From contig CBDFMP010000049.1 in NCBI GenBank assembly GCA_965249715.1, positions 8,547 through 72,546 of the forward strand: 64,000 bases of DNA, given 5' to 3'. Made by a program: the position numbers and the translations under genes. The stretch comes from Spirochaetota bacterium. GTDB taxonomy: Bacteria > Spirochaetota > UBA12135 > COTS27. Each line of letters starts with the position of its first letter. The first letter of the stretch is position 1. Below are positions 26,289 through 62,199 of this stretch, piece after piece. The notes beneath the pieces are model-generated. The model ran no database searches, was not told the origin of the DNA, and saw nothing but the letters and a program-made list of their open reading frames with translations.

Positions 26289-26690
26289 TCAGTTTACAGC
26301 AATTGTTGCGGGTTTAGCGGACGTTGTGCGAACTTCGTGTAGCCCGCATTCGCGTGTACCGCCCTGTTCCCACCACCAGCGCCCGGCGCGTGCAGTTTCG
26401 CCTGCGGTGACCGCACGCGTGCAGTAGGCACAGCCAATGCTGGGATAACCACGGGCATGCAGCGGATTGATAGGGAGCTGCTGAGTTTTGATAACGGTTG
26501 CTGGGTGGAACGCTTTGAGTGCCAGCTGGACAAGCGTGATAAAAGCTTTGCCGCCAGAAAAAAGCAAAACGGGATTGCGAAAATTGGCTGCCGTCTCACG
26601 TAAAATATGAATAGCTTCACTTTCTAATAAACTTAAGTGCGGTGTTAAGTTTTTGGCGGGTGCCCTTTGGGTTGCAATGTCAAGTTTCAT
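26289..26690 (-). pseudogene. In-frame CysD(N)-CysH(C) chimeric ORF, copy 2
   Basis: 133 aa: ...AFHPATV|[21 protein letters not shown]... Confidence 0.8.
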
Positions 26691-26702
26691 TCGCGCAAGC
26701 TC

Positions 26703-27104
26703 TCAGTTTACAGCAATCGCTGCGGGTTTAGCGGACGTTGTGCGAACTTCGTGTAGCCCGCATTCGCGTGTACCGCCCTGTTCCCACCACCAGCGCCCGG
26801 CGCGTGCAGTTTCGCCTGCTGTGACCGCACGCGTGCAGCAGGCACAGCCAATGCTGGGATAACCGCGGGCATGCAGCGGATTGATAGGGAGCTGCTGAGT
26901 TTTGATAACGGTTGCTGGGTGGAACGCTTTGAGTGCCAGCTGGACAAGCGTGATAAAAGCTTTGCCGCCAGAAAAAAGCAAAACGGGATTGCGAAAATTG
27001 GCTGCCGTCTCACGTAAAATATGAATAGCTTCACTTTCTAATAAACTTAAGTGCGGTGTTAAGTTTTTGGCGGGTGCCCTTTGGGTTGCAATGTCAAGTT
27101 TCAT
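26703..27104 (-). pseudogene. In-frame CysD(N)-CysH(C) chimeric ORF, copy 1
   Basis: 133 aa, same junction as copy 2. Confidence 0.8.
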
Positions 27105-27116
27105 TCGCGCAAGCTC

Positions 27117-27917
27117 TCAGTTTACAGCAATCGCTGCGGGTTTAGCGGACGTTGTGCGAACTTCGTGTAGCCCGCATTCGCGTGTACCGCCCTGTTCCCA
27201 CCACCAGCGCCCGGCGCGTGCAGTTTCGCCTGCTGTGACCGCACGTGTGCAGCAGGCACAGCCAATGCTGGGATAACCGCGGGCATGCAGCGGATTGATG
27301 GGGAGCTGCTGAGCTTTGATAAAGGCACTCAGTGTTTCAGCAGACCAATGATAAAGCGGGTGAAATTTGCTGACGCTGAGTGCTGCATCAAATTCAAGCG
27401 CGGCATGTGTCTTGGCGCGCGTTTGTGATTGTGTCTTGCGGATGCCGCTGAGCCATAGCTCTGCGGAAAAGTCTTTCAGCGCACGTCTTAGCGGTGTTAG
27501 CTTGCGGATGGCACAGCATTCCTGACGTAAGGCAACTGACTTTTTAAAACCATCACTGCCGTGTTGGCGTACATAAGTTTCAACGGCTGCTGTGTCCGGG
27601 AAATAGAGCTGAATAGGTTTTTTATAGTACGCTGTGGTGGCAGCAAGCAACGCGTAACTTTCCGCAAAAAGCCGCCCGGTGTCTAAGGTAAAAACAGTGA
27701 TCGGCAGGTTTTCCTTAAAAATAATATGTGTAAGCGCCTGATCTTCCTGCCCAAGACTGGTGGAGAAAACAATGTGTTTGAAATAACGCGTTGCTAATTG
27801 CAGCGTTTTTATAACAGCTGCTTGCGGATTGTCTGAAGCCGCGCCAGCAGGCATAACCGCCAGCGCAGCTGCAAAAGCTTGCTGTGTTTGGGGGATGTTT
27901 GAGGATGCTGCGGCCAT
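27117..27917 (-). CDS. cysH: APS/PAPS reductase
   Basis: [36 protein letters not shown]. Confidence 0.96.
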   Translation of the reverse strand: MAAASSNIPQTQQAFAAALAVMPAGAASDNPQAAVIKTLQLATRYFKHIVFSTSLGQEDQALTHIIFKENLPITVFTLDTGRLFAESYALLAATTAYYKKPIQLYFPDTAAVETYVRQHGSDGFKKSVALRQECCAIRKLTPLRRALKDFSAELWLSGIRKTQSQTRAKTHAALEFDAALSVSKFHPLYHWSAETLSAFIKAQQLPINPLHARGYPSIGCACCTRAVTAGETARAGRWWWEQGGTRECGLHEVRTTSAKPAAIAVN

Positions 27918-46603: not shown

Positions 46604-46993
46604 ATGTCTGCCTTTCGCCGCAGGAAACTGGAAACACAATTGGCGCAACGCCTGAGCGAACTGATTCTGTTTGAATTATCTGACGCACAGCTAGGCACTG
46701 AAATCATTTCCATCACGCGCGTGGAGGTGACCCCAGACTATTTTAAAGCGGCAGTGTATTTTACATTGCTGCGCGCGGAGTATAAAAACCGTGTACTCAA
46801 AGCGCTTTACCGCGCTGCGCCGCGTTTGCAGCACTTTTTATACAAACGTATGCGCATCGGCAAGCTGCCGCAGCTGCAGTTTTTTTACGATCACACAACA
46901 TTGCGGCGGCAGGAACAGTTTGCTGCAGGCGGCAGCGAAGCAGAAGCTGCTGCGACTGAGATTATCGCAGAAGAACGCCGCCGCAATAATTGA
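46604..46993 (+). CDS. rbfA: Ribosome-binding factor A
   Basis: ISITRVEVTPD...A.VYF, P.LQFFYD; follows infB. Confidence 0.9.
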   Translation: MSAFRRRKLETQLAQRLSELILFELSDAQLGTEIISITRVEVTPDYFKAAVYFTLLRAEYKNRVLKALYRAAPRLQHFLYKRMRIGKLPQLQFFYDHTTLRRQEQFAAGGSEAEAAATEIIAEERRRNN

Positions 46994-48553
46994 CAATACT
47001 TTCGGACAACACTGGCGCAGCGCCTGAGCGAACTGGTTCTGTTTGAATTGTCTGACGCACAGCTAGGCACTGAAATCATTTCCATCACGCGCGTGGAGGT
47101 GACATCAGACTATTTTAAGGCGGCAATGTGTTTTACATTGCTGCGCTTGCAGCACTTTTTATACAAACGCATGCGCATCGGCAAGCTGCTGCGACTGAGC
47201 TTATCGCAGAAGAACGCCGCCGCAACAATTGACAACACTTTCGGACAACACTGGCGCAGCGCCTGAGTGAACTGATTCTGTTTGAATTGTCTGACGCACA
47301 GCTAGGCACTGAAATCATTTCCATCACGTGCGTGGAAGTGACTCCCAGACTATTTTAAGGAGGCAATGTGTTTTACATTGCTGCGCACGGAACATAAAAA
47401 TTGTGTAATCAAAGCGCTTTACCGTGAACGCCGCCGCAACAATTGACAATACTTTACTGGCGCAGCACCTGAGCGAACTGATTCTGTTTGAATTGTCTGA
47501 CGCACAAACTGAAATTATTTCCATCACGCGCGTGGAGGTTACCGCGCTGCGCCGCGTTTGCAGTTTACTTTTTATACAAACGTATGTGCATCGGCAAGCT
47601 GCCGCAGCTGCAGTTTTTTTACGATCACACAACATTGCGGCGGCAGGAACAGTTTGCTGCAGGCGGCAGCGAAGCAGAAGCTGCTGCGACTGAGCTTATC
47701 GCAGAAGAACGCCGCCGCAACTTTCGGACAAATTGACAACTGACTTCTGACGCACAGCGGACAACACTGGCGCATTGCTGCGCTTGCGCCTGAGCGAACT
47801 GATTCTGTTTGAATTGTCTGACGCACAGCTAGGCACTGAAATCATTTCCATCACGCGCGTGGAGGTGACCCAGACAGACTTTTGCTTAAGGCGGCAGCTG
47901 TATTTTATCGGCAAGCTGCTGCGACTGAGCTTATCGCAGAAGAACGCCGCCGAACATACAAACTGGCGCAGCGCCTGAGCGAACTGTGTAATTGTCTCAA
48001 AGGCACGAAATCATTTTACCGCGCTGCGCCGCGTTTGCAGCACTTTTTATACAAACGTATGTGCATCGGCAAGCTGCCGCAGCTGCAGTTTTTTTACGAT
48101 CACACAACATTGCGGCGGCAGGAACAGGCGGCACTTGCGACATTGCTGCGCATGGAACATAAAAACCGTGTACTCAAAGCGTTTTACCGCGCTGCGCCGC
48201 GTTTGCAGCGTATGTGCATCGGCAAGCTGCTGCGACTGAGCTTATCGCAGAAGAACGCCGCCGCAACAATTGACAACACTTTCGGACAACACTGGCGCAG
48301 CGCCTGAGTGAACTGATTCTGTTTGAATTGTCTGACGCACAGCTAGGCACTGAAATTATTTCCATCACGTGCGTGGAAGTGACTCCCAGACTATTTTAAG
48401 GCGGCAATGTATTTTACATTGCCGCGCATGGAACATAAAAACCGTGTACTCAAAGCGTTTTATCGCATTGCGCCGCGTTTGCAGCACTTTTTATACAAAC
48501 GTATGCGCATCGGCAAGCTGCTGCGACTGAGATCATCGCAGAAGAACGCCGCC
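46994..48553 (+). repeat. About six scrambled, deleted tandem copies of rbfA
   Basis: ACTGGCGCA-led restarts near 47011, 47250, 47456, 47766, 47963 and 48291. Confidence 0.95.
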
Positions 48554-48739
48554 GAACAGTGCGGGAACTGCTGCTGCAATCCTTACTATGATTCTTGTGG
48601 GATGGTTTAAGGTTTTTAAAATTTTTTATGTTTTTTTATGGCTATTGTCATACGTTTATTGTTATGTCATACTATAACAACAGATTCATTGTACTGTAAC
48701 AGGTCGTGTTGCAGTGTTTGAATATGGAGGGATTTTGTA

Positions 48740-53971: not shown

Positions 53972-54658
53972 ATGCGCATTCTTTTACAGCAGGTCTTGCG
54001 TGCCGCCGGCGCGCCGGCGCTTGCGCTCGGTGCGACTTTTTTTGCTTACGGGACGCAAACAAAAATTGCCGGCTTCTCAGTGCTGGAGGCCTGGTTGGCA
54101 CCGGCAGTTATTTATACCATCCCCGGACAGCTCATTGTTGTGGAACAGGCGGCACTCGCTGCCTCGTGGCTGAGTGTCTTGCTTTCCGTCTTCCTCGTCA
54201 ATACGCGCCTTTTGCCGATGACCATGGCGGTCATGCCGCACATTAAAAGTCGTTATCTCTTAGTCAATATCGTCAACGCCCACTTTGTCGCGCTCACCAC
54301 CTGGCTGGGATTTCTGAATGCGCTGCCGCAGCTTAAAGCCCATCCGCAGCTGAGCAGGAGCACATTTTATTTTATATTTGGCGGGCTGCTCTGGTGCATT
54401 GCCTGGAGCGCGGCGCTGTTAGGTTATTTCAGCAAGGATTTTATGAGTCCTGAGTGGCAGTTGGCATTGGTGTACGTGAACCCGCTTTATTTCCTGCTGC
54501 TCATTTGGGAGCAAACACAGCAGCCCGCCAACATGCTGCCTATTGTCTTAGGGGCTGTATTGCTTCCGCCGCTGGCGTTATGGAATGCCGAGTGGAGTAT
54601 TCTTATCGCCGGGCTGATCGGCGGCACACTTGCTTTTTGGCTGAGGCGCCGCAGATGA
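53972..54658 (+). CDS. azlC: AzlC family permease
   Basis: PGQL, VNTRLLPM, hydrophobic; coupled to an AzlD-like ORF. Confidence 0.8.
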   Translation: MRILLQQVLRAAGAPALALGATFFAYGTQTKIAGFSVLEAWLAPAVIYTIPGQLIVVEQAALAASWLSVLLSVFLVNTRLLPMTMAVMPHIKSRYLLVNIVNAHFVALTTWLGFLNALPQLKAHPQLSRSTFYFIFGGLLWCIAWSAALLGYFSKDFMSPEWQLALVYVNPLYFLLLIWEQTQQPANMLPIVLGAVLLPPLALWNAEWSILIAGLIGGTLAFWLRRRR

Positions 54659-54981
54659 AAGAAGTCAGTACCCTGACAATGATAGCCTGTGCCGTAGCGG
54701 CAACCGTTTTTTGGCGTGTGCTTGGGGTGTATGTTGGCAGGCGGTTTAGCGCCGATCATCCGCTTATTGGCTGGGCAAATGCAGTCGCTTACAGTACGGT
54801 GACTGCACTGACCGTAAAACTGTTAGTATTACCTGAAGGAGCATTGGCACTGACATCTGGTCTTCAGCGTTTGGAAGCGTTGGCAGTGGCAGTCGTGGTG
54901 TTTTATGTCACGCGCAGAAATGTCCTGCTTGCTTGTCTGGCGGGTGTAGCGGTTTTTGCTGTATTGCTTTCATGGCATTGA
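54655..54981 (+). CDS. azlD: AzlD domain protein
   Basis: ATGA overlap with azlC; ATVFWRVLG, TRRNVLLA. Confidence 0.75.
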   Translation: MKEVSTLTMIACAVAATVFWRVLGVYVGRRFSADHPLIGWANAVAYSTVTALTVKLLVLPEGALALTSGLQRLEALAVAVVVFYVTRRNVLLACLAGVAVFAVLLSWH

Positions 54982-55172: not shown

Positions 55173-55955
55173 ATGTTTTACGCACTTAAAGAAGGCAAAT
55201 CAAAAAGGAATGAAGATACTTTAACTTCTTCAATTTTTGGTTTGATGCTGAAGCTACGAACCGAGAACCCACAAACCGATTTAATGTGGGAAATTTTATG
55301 TGCTGCTTGTTTTAATAAAGAGTTGAATAATAAATTTTCTGCTCCCGGTAAGCTGGAGGAGTTTGAGTTTTGGCCATGGTGGGAACTTGGAGCTACGGCT
55401 GCTAAAAAATATGATCAGCGGCACGTTGAACCAGATCTATTCCTTAGCTTTGAGAAGCTAGATGTTATTATTGAAGCTAAGCGATCGGATGCTAACCAGC
55501 AATATGAAGATCAATGGAAAAGGGAACTTAGCGGGTATTTTACTTCTGTTAGGGAGGGTAGAGATAAACCTGTTTGTATGTTTGCTGTAGGCGGACTTTA
55601 TTCTCATAAAACAAAGCCGATCGAGCTCACTGAGATTTTTATGAAGGCTGAAGTCGAGGCAGCTGTTTTTAAACAAGTTAAAGAGGGAAGTATTAACGTT
55701 TATAAATTTACGTGGGAGCGAATTTTAGAACAAATAATTAAACTTAAAAAGAAACAGGACTTTAGCCGTGAAATTGCTGATAGCGGGGGCATATTATGCA
55801 ATGTTTTAATCGACCTTATTGGGGCATTTGATTTGCATGGTTATATTGCTTATACATGGTTTGAGACACTGCCTGCTGCAAACTTTTCAGGTATTACAGA
55901 CATTAGCAGCCATGGAGCTCTGAATGCTTGGAATCCAGCTGCATGGAAAAGTTAA
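55173..55955 (+). CDS. PD-(D/E)xK nuclease-like protein
   Basis: EDTLTSSIFG, EPDLFL, IIEAK, Q...Q motifs; AT-rich. Confidence 0.7.
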   Translation: MFYALKEGKSKRNEDTLTSSIFGLMLKLRTENPQTDLMWEILCAACFNKELNNKFSAPGKLEEFEFWPWWELGATAAKKYDQRHVEPDLFLSFEKLDVIIEAKRSDANQQYEDQWKRELSGYFTSVREGRDKPVCMFAVGGLYSHKTKPIELTEIFMKAEVEAAVFKQVKEGSINVYKFTWERILEQIIKLKKKQDFSREIADSGGILCNVLIDLIGAFDLHGYIAYTWFETLPAANFSGITDISSHGALNAWNPAAWKS

Positions 55956-55968
55956 ATGGAGAACTTAG

Positions 55969-56712
55969 ATGAACGCAGAAAATAAGCCCAGCAGTGAAGC
56001 TGAAATAGAGAAATCTTTTATTGAGGTTAGAAAAGCATATAGGTTGCTTTTTTCATATCAAAAACGAGTGATTCATTTGATGAAATATATCGAAAAACAC
56101 TTAAGGAACAGCCTTGATTATTCTTTTAGGGAAGGCTTTCCGTTGTATCATGGAATAGAGAATATTGATAAGAGAAAAGTTTTAGATTATGTGGCTAGGT
56201 GGGAATGGTTAAAACTGTATTATTTTCAGTTTTGGTTTATGGGGCGTGCTAATATAGGGTATGGCAAAAGTGTCCCCAAAGCTGAAAACAAAGAAATTCT
56301 TTTCGGTGTTGCATTACAGAGTGACTCAGGCGCTTCCGACAAACACAAAAAAAATACACTCGGACGTTGGGATCCTAATGCAATGGAAGTAGAAAACTTT
56401 TGTCCTGCTGAAGGGGCAAAAACAAGATTAATTTTTGTGGTTGGCTCGTATGATGACTGGTGCGTTAAGGATGATTATTGGGGCATTAATGGTACACTCA
56501 GGTTGCTTGATAATAATAATTGGAAAGATCCAAAAGAGCACGAAGAGCCCGAATATGAATTGAATAAGATAAATGATAAGCCAGCTCGCATAATTGGCAA
56601 GGCTTACAACTTAGCCAGCTTTAGCAATGAAGAAAAAACAATAGCCAAGCTTGATGACTTTAAAAAACACTGCGAGGGAAAAGATTTTATGTTAGTAAAG
56701 GGAACTTGGTAA
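55969..56712 (+). CDS. Hypothetical protein coupled to the nuclease-like gene
   Basis: 247-aa AT-rich ORF, GGAG RBS, 13 bp after the previous stop. Confidence 0.8.
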   Translation: MNAENKPSSEAEIEKSFIEVRKAYRLLFSYQKRVIHLMKYIEKHLRNSLDYSFREGFPLYHGIENIDKRKVLDYVARWEWLKLYYFQFWFMGRANIGYGKSVPKAENKEILFGVALQSDSGASDKHKKNTLGRWDPNAMEVENFCPAEGAKTRLIFVVGSYDDWCVKDDYWGINGTLRLLDNNNWKDPKEHEEPEYELNKINDKPARIIGKAYNLASFSNEEKTIAKLDDFKKHCEGKDFMLVKGTW

Positions 56713-56816
56713 AGCAGTATTACCATTTCTTGCAAGTTTCCACATAAATAAAAACAATTTAAATTTGCGTGTATGCTGAGGGAGACTCGCCCTTAGCCAG
56801 AACCCAACACCCCCCT

Positions 56817-56883
56817 CCGCAATCGCCAGTGTGGCGTAAGTGATAAGAAACGCTGTCCCGCGGCGCGCTGCAATAATGTAAGC
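56817..56883 (-). repeat. Divergent hemB 3'-end relic 3; direct repeat with 58503..58572
   Basis: Near-identical to 58503..58572; minus strand reads GTAFLITYATLAIA versus HemB GTAFVITYAALTIA. Confidence 0.9.
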
Positions 56884-56936
56884 ATAAAAATAGAAGTTGA
56901 TGTAAAAAAATTAAATAGTTAATGTAGGGCAAGAGT

Positions 56937-58529
56937 ATGAGTAAGAGAATAACCCTATCAATACGCCTTTTGAAAGAAGGTGTTCCTCCTGAGGACGCGT
57001 TTAAAGAACAACCAGAATCGGAGTTGGGAAAGTATGATCAAATAGCTGAGGCTAAGTATTATATTGATAAAGGCTGGAGCTTCCCACCTGATTGGGTAAA
57101 GTATCTTGGTTGGGAAAAGCCGAAGGTAAGTACTGCAAGTGCTTTATTATTTATTCCTATAAGTGATAGTGGGGGCAATCACAGACATTTTGTAGTTAGT
57201 TTTGGTTATGGGTATGCCAAGCTAAATGATGATAGGTTAGTTAGTGACTTTGGGTTAATAACTGCATTAAATATGTTAGACAATGACGGCATCAAAAGCT
57301 CCAGTGTTTTTGCCCCTTCTGATCATTCCAAACAAAAAAAAACTCAAACAACTCGGGCATCGAGCTTAGTTGGGCATGATATGGACTACTATACCCAGAT
57401 TCTTAAAAATGTTACGGGAAGAGTAAAAGATAAATATGAAGTATTGTCTAAAAATATCACTGCTAGTTTACAATCTATTAAAATTAGTACAGGCGAAGAA
57501 GTAAAAAATCTTCCTGAGTTATGCCGTAAATTTTTAGAAATTTATCAGAAAGAAGATTATAAGGAGAATTTTAAAGATCTTTTTTATATCGAACGAATAA
57601 AAGAAAAAGATCTTTGTGAAAAATTAAATAAAAAACTGATCAAAGGCATTCAAGATAAATCAGATAATATTTATCTTGAAGTTCCCGAATTAATTGATTT
57701 TCAATCTGTAAGTAAATGGCAAATCAAGTTTAAAGGCAATAGATCTAAGAAAGAATTTGATGATGTTCCAACTATAAAAGAATTTCACGGTGCAATTTCA
57801 GAGTATTCTCATATAGGTGAAATTAAAGTTGAATCTCTAAAGAAGTGGGAGATTAATTTGTTGGATGAAAATGATACTTCGCAACACTCTTTTAGCATAT
57901 TTAAATGCTTGGTATTTGAAACTAATTTAGATGAAGAAACTTATTGTTTTTCTCATGGTTATTGGTATCATATTAATTCTGATTTTAAAGAAGAAGTGAT
58001 ATCTAAGACTGAAGAGTATAAGATTGAAAAAATTAATGGTAAAAGTATTCCGATATTTGCCCATCAAAACGAAGCTGCTTATAACGAAGACTTAGCAAAA
58101 AGTACAAATGGAAAGTTATTAGATAAAAATTGTATTTCAATGGGAGGGTACGATAAAATTGAGCTTTGTGATGTACTTTACATTTCTAATAACGGAAAAA
58201 CTACTTTTTTGCACGTCAAAATAAAACATGGCGGGTCCTCAGGATTAAGCCATTTATTTGCTCAGGGAGATAATTCTCTTACTCTATTGCGCAGTAAAGA
58301 TAGTAAATTTATTGAGGGCATTAAGGTGGTCACTAATTTGGGATTAGAAGATATTGATAAAGACGTTAAGGTTCATTTTCTTATTATAAGTAAGAATGGT
58401 AGAGATATTCCTTTTTTTGCAAAGGTTTCTCTTTTTAAAACAATAAAAGAAATAATATCTAAAAATTCCAAAGTTCAGTGGTCTGTTCAGTTAAATACAA
58501 TGCCGCAATCGCCAGCGCGGCGTAAGTGA
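56937..58529 (+). CDS. TIGR04141/DUF6119-like sporadically distributed protein
   Basis: LSIRLLKEG, PPDW, SFGYG, DFGLITALN, NEAAYN, IELCDV, HVK, LSHLFAQG. Confidence 0.8.
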   Translation: MSKRITLSIRLLKEGVPPEDAFKEQPESELGKYDQIAEAKYYIDKGWSFPPDWVKYLGWEKPKVSTASALLFIPISDSGGNHRHFVVSFGYGYAKLNDDRLVSDFGLITALNMLDNDGIKSSSVFAPSDHSKQKKTQTTRASSLVGHDMDYYTQILKNVTGRVKDKYEVLSKNITASLQSIKISTGEEVKNLPELCRKFLEIYQKEDYKENFKDLFYIERIKEKDLCEKLNKKLIKGIQDKSDNIYLEVPELIDFQSVSKWQIKFKGNRSKKEFDDVPTIKEFHGAISEYSHIGEIKVESLKKWEINLLDENDTSQHSFSIFKCLVFETNLDEETYCFSHGYWYHINSDFKEEVISKTEEYKIEKINGKSIPIFAHQNEAAYNEDLAKSTNGKLLDKNCISMGGYDKIELCDVLYISNNGKTTFLHVKIKHGGSSGLSHLFAQGDNSLTLLRSKDSKFIEGIKVVTNLGLEDIDKDVKVHFLIISKNGRDIPFFAKVSLFKTIKEIISKNSKVQWSVQLNTMPQSPARRK

Positions 58530-58677
58530 TAAGAAACGCTGTCCCGCGGCACCGCGCTGCAATAATGTAAGCTGCCCGCTAATGACGGCGTGTTCGGATC
58601 AATCCACCCATTAGCGCGGCGGCGATAGGAAGCGGCGGATTGAGGATTGAGCTGCTGCAGCATGGCGATAATGTCCA
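58503..58677 (-). pseudogene. Divergent hemB 3'-end relic 2
   Basis: Minus-strand blocks DIIAML, ANGWID and GTAFLITYAALAIA are colinear with the HemB C-terminus (61180..61381). Confidence 0.88.
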
Positions 58678-58731
58678 TTGTGCCGCCCAACTGTACGCGC
58701 GATGACTTTATTGAATGTATGGTCAATTAGG

Positions 58732-59634
58732 CTACTGTTCGCGTTTGTTTAAGACGGCTGAAAGACTCCCATCGATATTCGTTAACGTTAGTGTAACGGT
58801 GAAGTGACTTTCATTGTGATTGATAACATTGCCAGCTGTGTCGCGTTCGGCAATGCACAGCTTCCCCTCTTCTAATACTTCACGTAGATAATAACCTGTG
58901 TCGTCTTCGTCCGGATCATCAAAGGTGTATAAAGTTCCATCAACTGCGGTGGCGCTGTACCCAGCTGGGAGATCTTCTCCATTGGTGATCATCCCTGTGG
59001 CAGAAACAGCGTTCAGACCTTTGAGATGGAAGGTGTCGTTTAAGAACTGTACACTAATTTGGCGATTAGCGAAAGACACGTCAAGCAGTAATGTAGGATT
59101 AGGCTTAGTAACATGGCTGGTAGCGACTATTTCACTGACTGCTGTTCCATTGTAATTAATAGAAATGTCGTAAATGATGCTTTTGCCCGCATTATTTATG
59201 ATGACAACACTGTTTGCCAGTAAAGCGTTTGTACTTTTAGCACCTGCTTGATCTGGAATGTTAATGCTGATGTTGCCGTCTGCAATGGTGAACGTCTCCG
59301 CAACTTCTGTAATGATGAGCATGCCAATATTGTCTTCTACCGCTTCACACGGCGGCAGGGTACAGGCATTGGTGACCTCCGCTAAGACAATACGCGCATT
59401 GGTGAACTGAGCGGTGACGTCGGTTGTGGCTGGCAATACGTCAATGGAAACATCCGCTAATTCGGATGTGCGCAGATCGAAAAAACTGATAGCACTGCTG
59501 ATGCTGTATTCAAACTCAGGCACAAGCGAATGATTGGTAATTTCACTGGCGGCACAACTTGTGAAGAGCGGCAGCAAGACAATGAACTGCAGTACACCTA
59601 CGGTGACAGCAAAATACCCCAAAATTGCCCCCAT
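58732..59634 (-). CDS. Putative lipoprotein of unknown function
   Basis: Hydrophobic N-terminus ending LFTSC; AAGGG RBS; acidic, Thr-rich. Confidence 0.65.
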   Translation of the reverse strand: MGAILGYFAVTVGVLQFIVLLPLFTSCAASEITNHSLVPEFEYSISSAISFFDLRTSELADVSIDVLPATTDVTAQFTNARIVLAEVTNACTLPPCEAVEDNIGMLIITEVAETFTIADGNISINIPDQAGAKSTNALLANSVVIINNAGKSIIYDISINYNGTAVSEIVATSHVTKPNPTLLLDVSFANRQISVQFLNDTFHLKGLNAVSATGMITNGEDLPAGYSATAVDGTLYTFDDPDEDDTGYYLREVLEEGKLCIAERDTAGNVINHNESHFTVTLTLTNIDGSLSAVLNKREQ

Positions 59635-59919: not shown

Positions 59920-60774
59920 TTAATGCAATGCTGCCCGTGCGGGTTCAGCTTGTGCAGCGGGTGAGTGATAATCGTACTGAGCCTGCGTTTTGTTTGCAGG
60001 CAGGCGATGTTCAGGAGCTATTTTTCCGCCAGTGCGGAGCCGCTGCTTGATCATTTTGTAGTACTGAGGATGCAGCTCAGCGCTGATAAAATTGCGTTCA
60101 AGACTCCGGCAGAGCAGCAGTTCATTGCCGCTGCCGCCGAAGAGAATGCAGCAATCATCGCCGCGCCGCGTGGCAGCTTGGATGAGCATGGTCACAAGCG
60201 GGAGGGGGATTTGGCAGGCGTGGAAAGTTTTATCTTTGTTGACGTTTTTCACAAGATTAAAATAAAACCAGTTATACGGCATCGCGCCTTTATGCCCGGC
60301 AGCCAAACGCGCCTGAATGCGTTTATCGTTGAGGTTTTTGTAGGGCACTGCAACTTGATTTTTATAAAAATGATTGTTTTTACTTTTAGTAGCGTGCAGA
60401 ATGGAGCGATGCGCAGTGGTGAAACGTTTGCGGCTGTGACCAACATTAGTATTGTAAACCCATGCGTAATCCTGTACGGCATGGGCGTTATTGTCTAAAT
60501 ACTTAACGCGCAGGTAGGCGTTTTGCTTGGGGTAATTGATGAGGAAGAGGTTGCCTGTGGGTTTGAGGACACGCAATGCGGCAGCTGTCAGCTCACAGTA
60601 CCAGTCGATGTACGCGTCCCATTTTTTATTGTAATGGCGACCTGCATAAGATACGCCGACATTGTAATCGGGGTCGCCGTAAATAAAGTCAAGCGATGCG
60701 GGCGGAAGCCGTCCCAGTAATTTAAGGATATCCTCTTGAAAGACCTGATTTCTAAAAGGCTTCAATGCGTCCAT
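59920..60774 (-). CDS. N4/N6 DNA methyltransferase, beta class, orphan
   Basis: DPDY catalytic-type motif, RVLKPTG, H.CQ.P, FGGSG SAM-binding motif after the catalytic motif. Confidence 0.88.
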   Translation of the reverse strand: MDALKPFRNQVFQEDILKLLGRLPPASLDFIYGDPDYNVGVSYAGRHYNKKWDAYIDWYCELTAAALRVLKPTGNLFLINYPKQNAYLRVKYLDNNAHAVQDYAWVYNTNVGHSRKRFTTAHRSILHATKSKNNHFYKNQVAVPYKNLNDKRIQARLAAGHKGAMPYNWFYFNLVKNVNKDKTFHACQIPLPLVTMLIQAATRRGDDCCILFGGSGNELLLCRSLERNFISAELHPQYYKMIKQRLRTGGKIAPEHRLPANKTQAQYDYHSPAAQAEPARAALH

Positions 60775-60825
60775 TGTAATGGCTTAGCGTACACCTCAGC
60801 CTTTATGTTGCATTGAGCAATTTTT

Positions 60826-60866
60826 TTCGGCGATAGTCAGCGCAGCCGTAATGACAAAAGCTGTGC
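60826..60866 (-). repeat. Near-identical hemB 3'-end relic 1 (copy of 61177..61220)
   Basis: TTCGGCGATAGTCAGCGCAGC---CGTAATGACAAAAGCTGTGC; two synonymous changes and a 3-bp deletion. Confidence 0.9.
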
Positions 60867-60886
60867 AGGTGTGTTGGATTGCCCCT

Positions 60887-61069
60887 TTATGCTATATCCT
60901 CAACATTAGCTATTGACGCATTTTCTTTTACAGATTTTATGCCGTTTTCGCAAGCTTGTTTGCTGCTGTATCCTTCAGAAGTAGCGATAATTTCACCATT
61001 TTTTGCCCTTAGCCTGAAACGATATTCATCAGCCCGATCTTTGAATATTTGAAATTTTGGATTTTCCAT
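60887..61069 (-). CDS. YegP/DUF1508 family protein
   Basis: FQIFKD..EYRFRLRAKNGEIIATSEGYSSK..CENGI.SVK.NA; GGGAG RBS. Confidence 0.92.
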   Translation of the reverse strand: MENPKFQIFKDRADEYRFRLRAKNGEIIATSEGYSSKQACENGIKSVKENASIANVEDIA

Positions 61070-61161
61070 TTTTGTGTCTCCCAATTGTTTTTACTAAACT
61101 GTAATTGTTGTTGAACTAATGCCCACCAATAGATTCTAATATAAGTAGCAATAAAATCGGG

Positions 61162-62199
61162 TTAAATTAATTTGTGTTCAGCGATAGTTAGCGCAGCGTA
61201 CGTAATGACAAAAGCTGTGCCGGCACGCTGAAAGGCGGTGAACAGCTCGGCGAGCGCGGCATGTTCATCGAGCCACCCCTTAGCAGCAGCAGCTTTAAGC
61301 ATCGCGTATTCACCCGAAACATGGTAGGCGGCGATGGGCAGCGGCGGCTTGAGCTCACGGTGTAACATCGCAATAATGTCTAAATACGGTGTGGCTGGTT
61401 TCACCATCAGCAGGTCTGCGCCCTCAGCGACATCGAGTAAAGCTTCACGTAATGCCTCACGGGCATTGCTGGGATCCATTTGGTAGCTGCGGCGATCGCC
61501 GAACTGCATCTGCGATGCCGCGGCAGTACGGAAGGGACCGTAAAATGCCGAAACAAACTTAACAGCATAACTCAAAATAGGAATTTGCGAGTACTGCTCA
61601 GCATCCAATGCTGTACGGATGGAAGCGACCATGCCGTCTAGCATTGCAGAAGGGGCGATAATGTCAGCGCCAGCTTGTGCCTGGATCACCGCTTGTTTGG
61701 CAAGCAATGGCAAGGTGGCATCGTTATCGACGGTTTGACTTCCAGCGGGTACAATGCCGCAATGTCCGTGTGCGGTGTACTCGCAAAAACAACAATCGGT
61801 GATAACAATGAGCTCAGGAAAACGCGCCTTAATGGTGCGGACAGCTTCGGCGATGACACCAGTGGCGCTGATGGCGTCACTTCCTGATGCGTCCTTGTGT
61901 TTGGGGATGCCGAAAAGGATAATGGCGCGGATGCCGGCATTGAGACAGCGTTCAATGTGCGGAAGCGCACGCGTGGCAGAGTATTGCGATATGCCCGGGA
62001 GCGCTGGAATGGCAGCCTCATGTTCCGGGTGGTGATGGATGAAAAAGGGCATGACCAGCTTACTGGGATTGAGCGCGGTTTCACGCACCAGCGCGCGTAA
62101 CTGAGGACTGCGGCGCAAGCGGCGCGGGCGGTGTTTGAACGGCAATGTCCGCTGTGACGAAGCTTTTAATATTGGCGCTGAGGTCATGGATGTTCCCAC
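61162..62199 (-). CDS. hemB: Porphobilinogen synthase
   Basis: RPRRLR, CFCEYTAHGHCG, FYGPFR, YQMDP, MVKP, AYHVSGEYAM. Confidence 0.98.
   Translation of the reverse strand: MGTSMTSAPILKASSQRTLPFKHRPRRLRRSPQLRALVRETALNPSKLVMPFFIHHHPEHEAAIPALPGISQYSATRALPHIERCLNAGIRAIILFGIPKHKDASGSDAISATGVIAEAVRTIKARFPELIVITDCCFCEYTAHGHCGIVPAGSQTVDNDATLPLLAKQAVIQAQAGADIIAPSAMLDGMVASIRTALDAEQYSQIPILSYAVKFVSAFYGPFRTAAASQMQFGDRRSYQMDPSNAREALREALLDVAEGADLLMVKPATPYLDIIAMLHRELKPPLPIAAYHVSGEYAMLKAAAAKGWLDEHAALAELFTAFQRAGTAFVITYAALTIAEHKLI

Follow-up and report, generated by a model that had tools for sequence, protein, structure and literature searches.

A relic of a diverged hemB allele within an array of defence-type genes in a Spirochaetota genome

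The window, the whole stretch of 64,000 nucleotides analysed here, belongs to a Spirochaetota bacterium (assembly GCA_965249715.1, contig CBDFMP010000049.1) and holds a series of single genes set between hemB and the azlC-azlD pair. The live hemB gene (61162..62199, minus strand) encodes a porphobilinogen synthase of 345 amino acids (Pfam ALAD, E 5e-135; NCBIfam PRK09283 above cut-off). At the other end, azlC-azlD (53972..54981, plus strand; identified with Pfam) forms the conserved left border and converges on hemB. Read along hemB, the order is hemB, DUF1508, relic R1, a methyltransferase gene, a gene for a 300-aa protein, relic R2, DUF6119, relic R3, PDC-M15B/A and azlD. The three relics are 3′ fragments of hemB, co-oriented with the live gene, with inserted DNA in between.

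On the hemB side, the first cargo gene encodes a DUF1508 protein of 65 amino acids (60887..61084, minus strand; Pfam PF07411) and is co-oriented with hemB; the G+C content between hemB and R1 is 34%. R1 (60819..60869, minus strand; delimited by blastn and codon register) starts about 20 nt past the DUF1508 stop codon and is a live-type tail spanning codons 328-341. Its 13 codons show two synonymous and no non-synonymous differences, and codon 334 (Tyr) is deleted. The possibility that R1 is a former C-terminus, which would add ten codons and reach a stop 21 nt short of the methyltransferase gene, was set aside because a 1-nt deletion fits equally. The next gene encodes a type II N6/N4 DNA methyltransferase (59920..60774, minus strand; Pfam PF01555; PADLOC MTase_II, E 2e-109), beside which no restriction partner was seen; a relative of the same family (G002) has a 69% identical DNA stretch for the methyltransferase region. 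The 300-aa protein (58732..59634, minus strand) belongs to no known family, having no Pfam, PADLOC or NCBIfam match, and offers a weak lipoprotein-like lead (Atlas matches under 0.9).

R2 (58500..58678, minus strand) starts 54 nt past the stop codon of the 300-aa gene, at the point where minus-strand and plus-strand cargo genes converge. Beyond it lies a gene for a DUF6119/TIGR04141 protein (56937..58529, plus strand; Pfam PF19614; TIGR04141), whose last eight codons and stop occupy the opposite strand of R2; six homologues terminate at nearly the same point and have unrelated residues there. The DUF6119 protein had no match in eight other genomes of the order. A second DUF6119-like sequence, fragmented and distant, is found on the same contig (G000:C49:90242-90899). 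R3 (56815..56886, minus strand) is a copy of about 70 nt of the end of R2, with two differences in 48 nt. Since R3 has the 2-nt frameshifting insertion of R2, it was most likely copied from R2 when R2 was already dead. Between R3 and azlD are the candidate defence genes PDC-M15A and PDC-M15B (55173..56712, plus strand; PADLOC E 1e-52 and 4e-38), co-oriented with azlCD.

The arrangement has several regular features. Genes on the hemB side follow the orientation of hemB and those on the azlD side follow azlD, with R2 as the meeting point. The relics start at codons 273, ~320 and 327-328, each at most 55 nt from a cargo gene boundary, and the right ends of all three lie within a few bases of codon 341. 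Unlike in the usual tandem copies, the spacer downstream of the hemB tail is not duplicated. Promoter and terminator scans stayed at chance level.

How does R2 differ from the live gene? It corresponds to hemB codons 273-340 and carries five indels, namely 7 nt replacing codon 282, a deletion of codons 292-305, and three insertions (2, 3 and 2 nt); because of these, R2 is dead. Its alignment with hemB consists of six ungapped blocks (58504-58678; codons 273-281, 283-291, 306-311, 312-325, 326 and 327-340), the boundaries of which were set partly by eye. The 53 alignable codons comprise 21 identical, 16 synonymous and 16 non-synonymous ones, and the differences at first, second and third codon positions number 9, 6 and 29. 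This corresponds to a pS of 0.62 and a pN of 0.16, and to a dS of 1.3 and a dN of 0.18, with dN/dS of about 0.14. An earlier note on this DNA had named 175 bases (58503..58677), a stretch that exceeds the 14 codons counted in it. The count itself is exact: in window positions 58504-58545 (minus strand), aligned with hemB codons 327-340, four codons are identical, eight differ synonymously and two non-synonymously (V>L, T>A), and the positional differences are 2/0/10. The other 39 codons are biased too, less strongly (7/6/19; dS 0.92, dN 0.23), and the 14-codon stretch is the most extreme part of R2. The differences affect 6 of 45 nt in codons 283-311 and 38 of 114 nt elsewhere in the relic, which is a post hoc hint only. 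Identical R2 letters are present in Logan contigs of four runs, which come from one sample of one study, possibly the source of the assembly; these contigs are broken only at the R2/R3 repeat. The hemB-azlD stretch was found in this one sample only.

The earlier note had argued that neutral decay of a dead copy does not give a third-position bias of this kind, that the relic had been coding in another functional hemB allele, and that dN/dS would provide a check. Decay was modelled over a grid of settings, in simulations where the relic evolved neutrally and the live gene was held under strict purifying selection. The largest P obtained was 0.002 for the 14 codons, or 0.01 with free choice of the best 14-codon window. 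For the codon classes across all 53 codons it was 0.016. The positional pattern of R2 was reached at best in 1 of 4000 simulations, in 1 of 12 settings. These values are to be read with two caveats: amino-acid likeness guided the choice of the R2 blocks, which inflates the synonymous bias somewhat, and about 230 genes with such copies in the genome were all open to being noticed. Thus, neutral decay is rejected, as the note had it, but the proper null expectation for dN/dS is about 0.5 and not 1, because the live gene keeps gaining synonymous changes. The value for the full alignment is about 0.14, not near 1, and the claim of former coding in a different functional allele holds.

Copies of gene ends are a habit of this genome, and R2 can be compared with them. 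A copy of the last 90 nt is found within 8 kb downstream of 241 of 1383 long ORFs and upstream of 32, while copies of the first 90 nt lie upstream of 78 of the 1383. After removal of paralogues, 728 tail copies remain, spread over 222 of 1428 long ORFs, with up to 17 gene-end copies per gene; these are often internally deleted, and recA and mutS are among the genes concerned. Examples in the window are found at 46604-48560 (rbfA) and 26289-27917 (PAPS reductase). When one rule is applied throughout, sampling every third 20-kb piece of this genome yields a tail copy for 52 of 405 frames; the figure is 3 of 210 for 400 kb of a genome of the same genus (G001) and 1 of 1283 for the hemB loci of other bacteria. 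Copy-age polarity along the arrays is weak, the nearest copy being closer to the live gene than the farthest in 79 of 147 genes and the reverse in 55. A reverse-transcriptase origin of the copies was considered and rejected, the sole match being a broken LINE-like element that is probably host DNA. This element (L136; G000:C33:376-3852) is a broken eukaryotic-type endonuclease-RT retroelement beside a long microsatellite at a contig start.

Relative to the live genes, pN/pS is 0.20 for the youngest class of 78 copies and climbs with age, reaching 0.67 for the oldest. In their sequences, young gene-end copies look like other alleles of the population that decay afterwards. R2 lies outside the divergence range of these ordinary copies. 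In the 22 ordinary copies with an R2-like indel density (2-3 per 100 nt), pS is 0.10 and pN 0.05; R2, with 0.62 and 0.16, has therefore acquired most of its divergence before its death. The synonymous share of same-residue codons is 0.43 in R2, against a maximum of 0.36 among 419 comparison copies found by blastn with at least 25 same-residue codons, a set that favours young copies. When 1424 genes were scanned at the protein level, R3 took second and R2 fourth place among downstream rows, and the neighbouring rows look like low-complexity matches or paralogues. Taken together, the codon pattern shows R2 to be a dead remnant of the 3′ part of another hemB allele, one that was functional in a sister lineage.

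Where might this second allele, here called type B, have come from? Live hemB shares 37 of the 53 residues of R2, compared with 21 for the relative of the same genus and 23 for that of the same family. In a tree of 12 rows, which lacks relatives G003 and G006, live hemB and R2 are sisters (support 95/92), on branches that are 0.24 and 0.22 changes per column long. Their shared tail motif opens with a Thr that is restricted to this genome's own records (3 of 222 rows). This sisterhood and the private Thr point to a close relative as the donor, nearer than any sampled genome. The earlier note had treated a relic branching immediately next to the live 3′ end as evidence against a foreign allele. 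Such a branching is indeed what the tree gives, yet it is uninformative, because no sister species is sampled and both branches are long. Neither type B nor a close hemB was found in the genomes of 41 relatives or in nine genomes of the order, and nothing close to type B occurred among the best 80 loci of genome contigs. In a hemB protein search, the best other match among the 120 listed is 59% identical, and the exact degenerate tail pattern had no match in viral contigs and none in metagenome contigs. Because no donor or second allele was found, transfer is inferred from the divergence alone.

Which of the two tails is the newcomer? The earlier note had raised the possibility that the live gene is a mosaic with a swapped tail. 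It is plausible, with even chances, that the live 3′ part (type A) arrived later and that the live gene is such a mosaic. Any tail swap would span at least codons 273-341 and so reach beyond the last 14 codons. The position of the live-like R1 near hemB, and of type B far from it beside the old neighbour azlD, favours displacement at hemB. Within hemB, identity to ten relatives by segment falls at the tail alike in all, with no hemB-specific step that would mark a breakpoint. Third-position G+C along hemB ranges from 0.44 to 0.65 with no clear step, and in the last 14 codons it is 6 of 14 in the live gene and 9 of 14 in the relic, too few to judge. The searches yielded no third allele by which to locate a breakpoint, and separate trees of the 5′ part, the live 3′ end and the relics, as the note had envisaged, do not resolve.

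Two other loci of this genome offer precedents, and they point in opposite directions. At gdhA (L145:236-3385; G000:C46), the gene is followed by a foreign NYN gene, directly after it by a tail-plus-terminator relic of a diverged functional allele, and then by two live-like copies. The relic has seven identical, five synonymous and six replaced codons, with conservative changes only and positional differences of 5/0/8. Over 57 shared columns, the relic beside the NYN gene differs from the live gene at 14 and the farther copies at 7 and 5. The farther copies record the earlier resident tail, and the diverged relic therefore most likely came with the cargo. At a 2-hydroxyacid dehydrogenase gene (L157:1110-3815; G000:C43), four copies share about eight mostly synonymous differences in the last 14 codons and one copy is live-type, a patch that possibly represents a swapped tail, as far as these letters go. 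Across the genome there is no excess of synonymous patches (10 of 228 genes against 15.9 in shuffles), and stricter cuts give five genes against 4.2 for at least six synonymous differences (P 0.40) and two against 1.4 for at least seven (P 0.38). At L143:583-3101 (G000:C40), an HTH gene, a PD-T7-4-like gene, a tail relic of 370 nt (98% identical) and a HEPN gene follow one another, forming another small defence array, whose relic is young.

The hemB-azlD junction is a variable, defence-flavoured hotspot between converging genes. In the COTS27 locus L025, the best match at genome level, the order is M18 peptidase, hemB, one variable gene, azlD and azlC; the borders are as here, and the gene in the gap is PD-T7-4-like. 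Its hemB has a canonical tail, and cargo is present without a relic. The genome paper of L025 reports neither transposable elements nor prophages (PMC7444263). Three to four tandem repeats of about 17 nt each follow the hemB stop region in L025 (11050-11110), a cluster of methyltransferase- and restriction-like genes lies upstream, and two long ORFs lie past azlC. In a relative of the same order, hemB is in three pieces with stops (G005:C7:234417-235381), either a broken gene or a sequencing error. No cassette-skipping joint indicating excised or cargo-less forms was found in the contigs of the four runs. Contig ends in run X2 (56817-56864 and 58503-58550) imply a left flank joined to R2-type letters at R3, which fits conversion of R3 or loss of the DUF6119 cassette in some cells. 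Contig depth in this run drops from 5.6 on the left side of DUF6119 to 2.4-2.6 across the gene and is 4.0 on its right side, values too low to serve as evidence.

Which recombination machinery is available? The assembly contains recA, mutS and comEC. The only tyrosine recombinases found are two XerC/XerD-like proteins on other contigs, and the resolvase family (PF00239) has no match in the assembly, which is about 85% complete and may thus lack an integrase that the genome has. The hemB-azlD array itself holds no integrase or integrase remnant. There is no constant att core common to all junctions, the relic starts varying by up to 55 codons. No integron integrase came near the cut-off, the spacers are hemB fragments, and no long inverted repeat of attC type is listed at the junctions (judged without an attC model). 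By these tests, the array is neither an integrase island nor an integron.

We consider it rather probable that the array arose by gene capture anchored in homology and independent of an integrase, in which gene tails are either displaced or imported along with the cargo. The live and R2 alleles would have met by horizontal transfer at the hemB-azlD junction. Incoming DNA of a related spirochaete may have been anchored by RecA-type homology in the hemB 3′ part or in a copy of it, the other end being joined illegitimately or as a small circle. Every such event would add one cargo gene and leave a second gene-end copy. If the crossover fell at the near end of the homology, the live gene would become a mosaic and its old tail would be displaced; at the far end, it would leave the live gene intact and park the donor tail behind the cargo. 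In the probable order of events, the long type-B relic arose together with the methyltransferase block and then decayed. DUF6119 would then have entered this relic, duplicating 70 nt and so giving rise to R2 and R3, and DUF1508 would have arrived with the live type-A tail already present, as R1 suggests.

Homology-anchored joining, as opposed to a fixed att site, is suggested by relic starts that differ and that each lie beside a cargo boundary. Against this model, all relics end near codon 341, as a site-specific event would give. This common end fits an unlikely alternative, in which an integrase drove tail replacement by tandem elements bearing hemB 3′ ends of their own, in the manner of e14 at icd, and the recombinases were later lost, leaving CIME-like remnants. 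The gene-end direct repeats that bracket single cargo genes (live hemB and R1 around DUF1508, R2 and R3 around DUF6119) suit this alternative, as does the icd/icdC pair, which differs largely synonymously (PMC13626634). It is opposed by an array without an integrase or remnant in an assembly with only XerC/D-like enzymes, by relic starts up to 55 codons apart, by the frameshift common to R2 and R3, which indicates duplication of dead sequence, and by viral contigs without an exact match to the degenerate tail pattern. The capture model faces further objections: the R2 pattern recurs in only one (gdhA) of six other cargo-flanking relics measured, L025 has cargo without a relic, a genome-wide excess of synonymous patches is lacking, and homology-facilitated illegitimate recombination is described as rare (PMC5361080).

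Could R2 instead be a very old ordinary tandem gene-end copy, with cargo entering the spacers later and the bias resulting from drift of the live gene and block choice? Tail copies at 222 of 1428 long ORFs with a third-position bias at every age, about 230 loci open to notice and a codon-class P of merely 0.016 over 53 codons speak for such an origin. Nevertheless it is quite improbable, given a positional pattern seen in at most 1 of 4000 simulations, a synonymous share above that of all 419 copies, and 0.24 changes per column on the live branch, by which time a dead copy would be unreadable. It is very unlikely, too, that R2 began as an ordinary copy and the whole or a long part of live hemB was then replaced by two-sided homologous recombination, with cargo capture as a separate matter. 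Strain alleles of hemB do circulate (14 variant places listed within the gene across four runs), and in their last 14 codons the L157 dehydrogenase copies form two haplotypes. On the other side, synonymous patches are no commoner than in shuffles, R2 comes without a duplicated downstream spacer, and a dS of about 1.3 greatly exceeds what is seen within the species, where the youngest copies have a pS of 0.026. Divergence of this order would hinder two-sided homologous recombination.

What would homology-anchored capture mean for this genome? One assembly would reveal DNA exchange with an unsampled sister lineage across a dS of about 1.3, at a core metabolic gene, and defence-type genes accumulate at hemB with no mobile-element enzyme in sight. 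A bolder and rather doubtful extension is that gene-end copies serve as recombination landing pads for integrase-free movement of defence genes between sister species and, at the same time, form a dated archive of functional alleles. If so, allele swaps would be legible from one genome (hemB, gdhA and the L157 dehydrogenase), gene-end relics would become a tool for detecting them, and the renewal of defence genes in a host-associated genome in which no phage-type integrase was found would be explained. A variable defence locus in a competent bacterium is the subject of PMC5398294. Among the papers searched, none matched on gene-end duplication, and none was found on hemB as an attB, integration or genomic-island site.

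How does the hemB array compare with known systems? CIMEs and pseudo-SCC remnants are recombinase-less units at the 3′ ends of protein genes, bounded by gene-end copies and often carrying restriction-modification or defence cargo. In contrast to hemB, whose array shows neither feature, such units possess a short, invariant att core, and relatives carry the matching integrase. Ehrlichia ruminantium, another host-associated genome, is said to contain large tandem repeats with many intergenic copies, in work attributed to Collins et al. 2005 and Frutos et al. 2006. The likeness concerns the gene-end copy habit, with copies that here straddle gene ends, and not R2, which involves a foreign allele and unique cargo between the copies.

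The closest counterpart of the tail divergence is icd/icdC at prophage e14 of E. coli K-12. As described in PMC13626634, a live housekeeping gene is likewise accompanied by a displaced C-terminal pseudogene beyond an insert, the two tails differ largely by synonymous changes, as do hemB and R2, and recombination between icd and icdC yields a chimeric gene. The hemB locus shares a co-oriented tail relic, set apart from the live gene by inserted DNA, and tails that diverged as functional alleles. It differs in that e14 is a 15-kb prophage, whereas the hemB inserts are single genes of 0.3-2 kb, with three relics of differing starts and no integrase found.

Reports on C-terminal displacement in rhs genes (PMC2935791) and on sequential displacement of T6SS effector-immunity genes in Vibrio (PMC5361080) describe arrays in which, as at hemB, 3′ fragments differing in length follow a complete gene and no integrase is involved. 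They attribute these arrays either to circles that recombine by homology or to homology-facilitated illegitimate recombination, and limit the donors to close kin (PMC2935791, PMC5361080). At hemB there are likewise an intact gene, several same-clade 3′ fragments of variable length and no integrase found. The scar type is thus already known, and the hemB case is a clean further example of it. The two situations differ in what is gained: in rhs and T6SS loci the new tip is itself the selected novelty, a toxin, whereas at hemB a conserved metabolic anchor keeps the function of its tail and the payload is unrelated, defence-type cargo.
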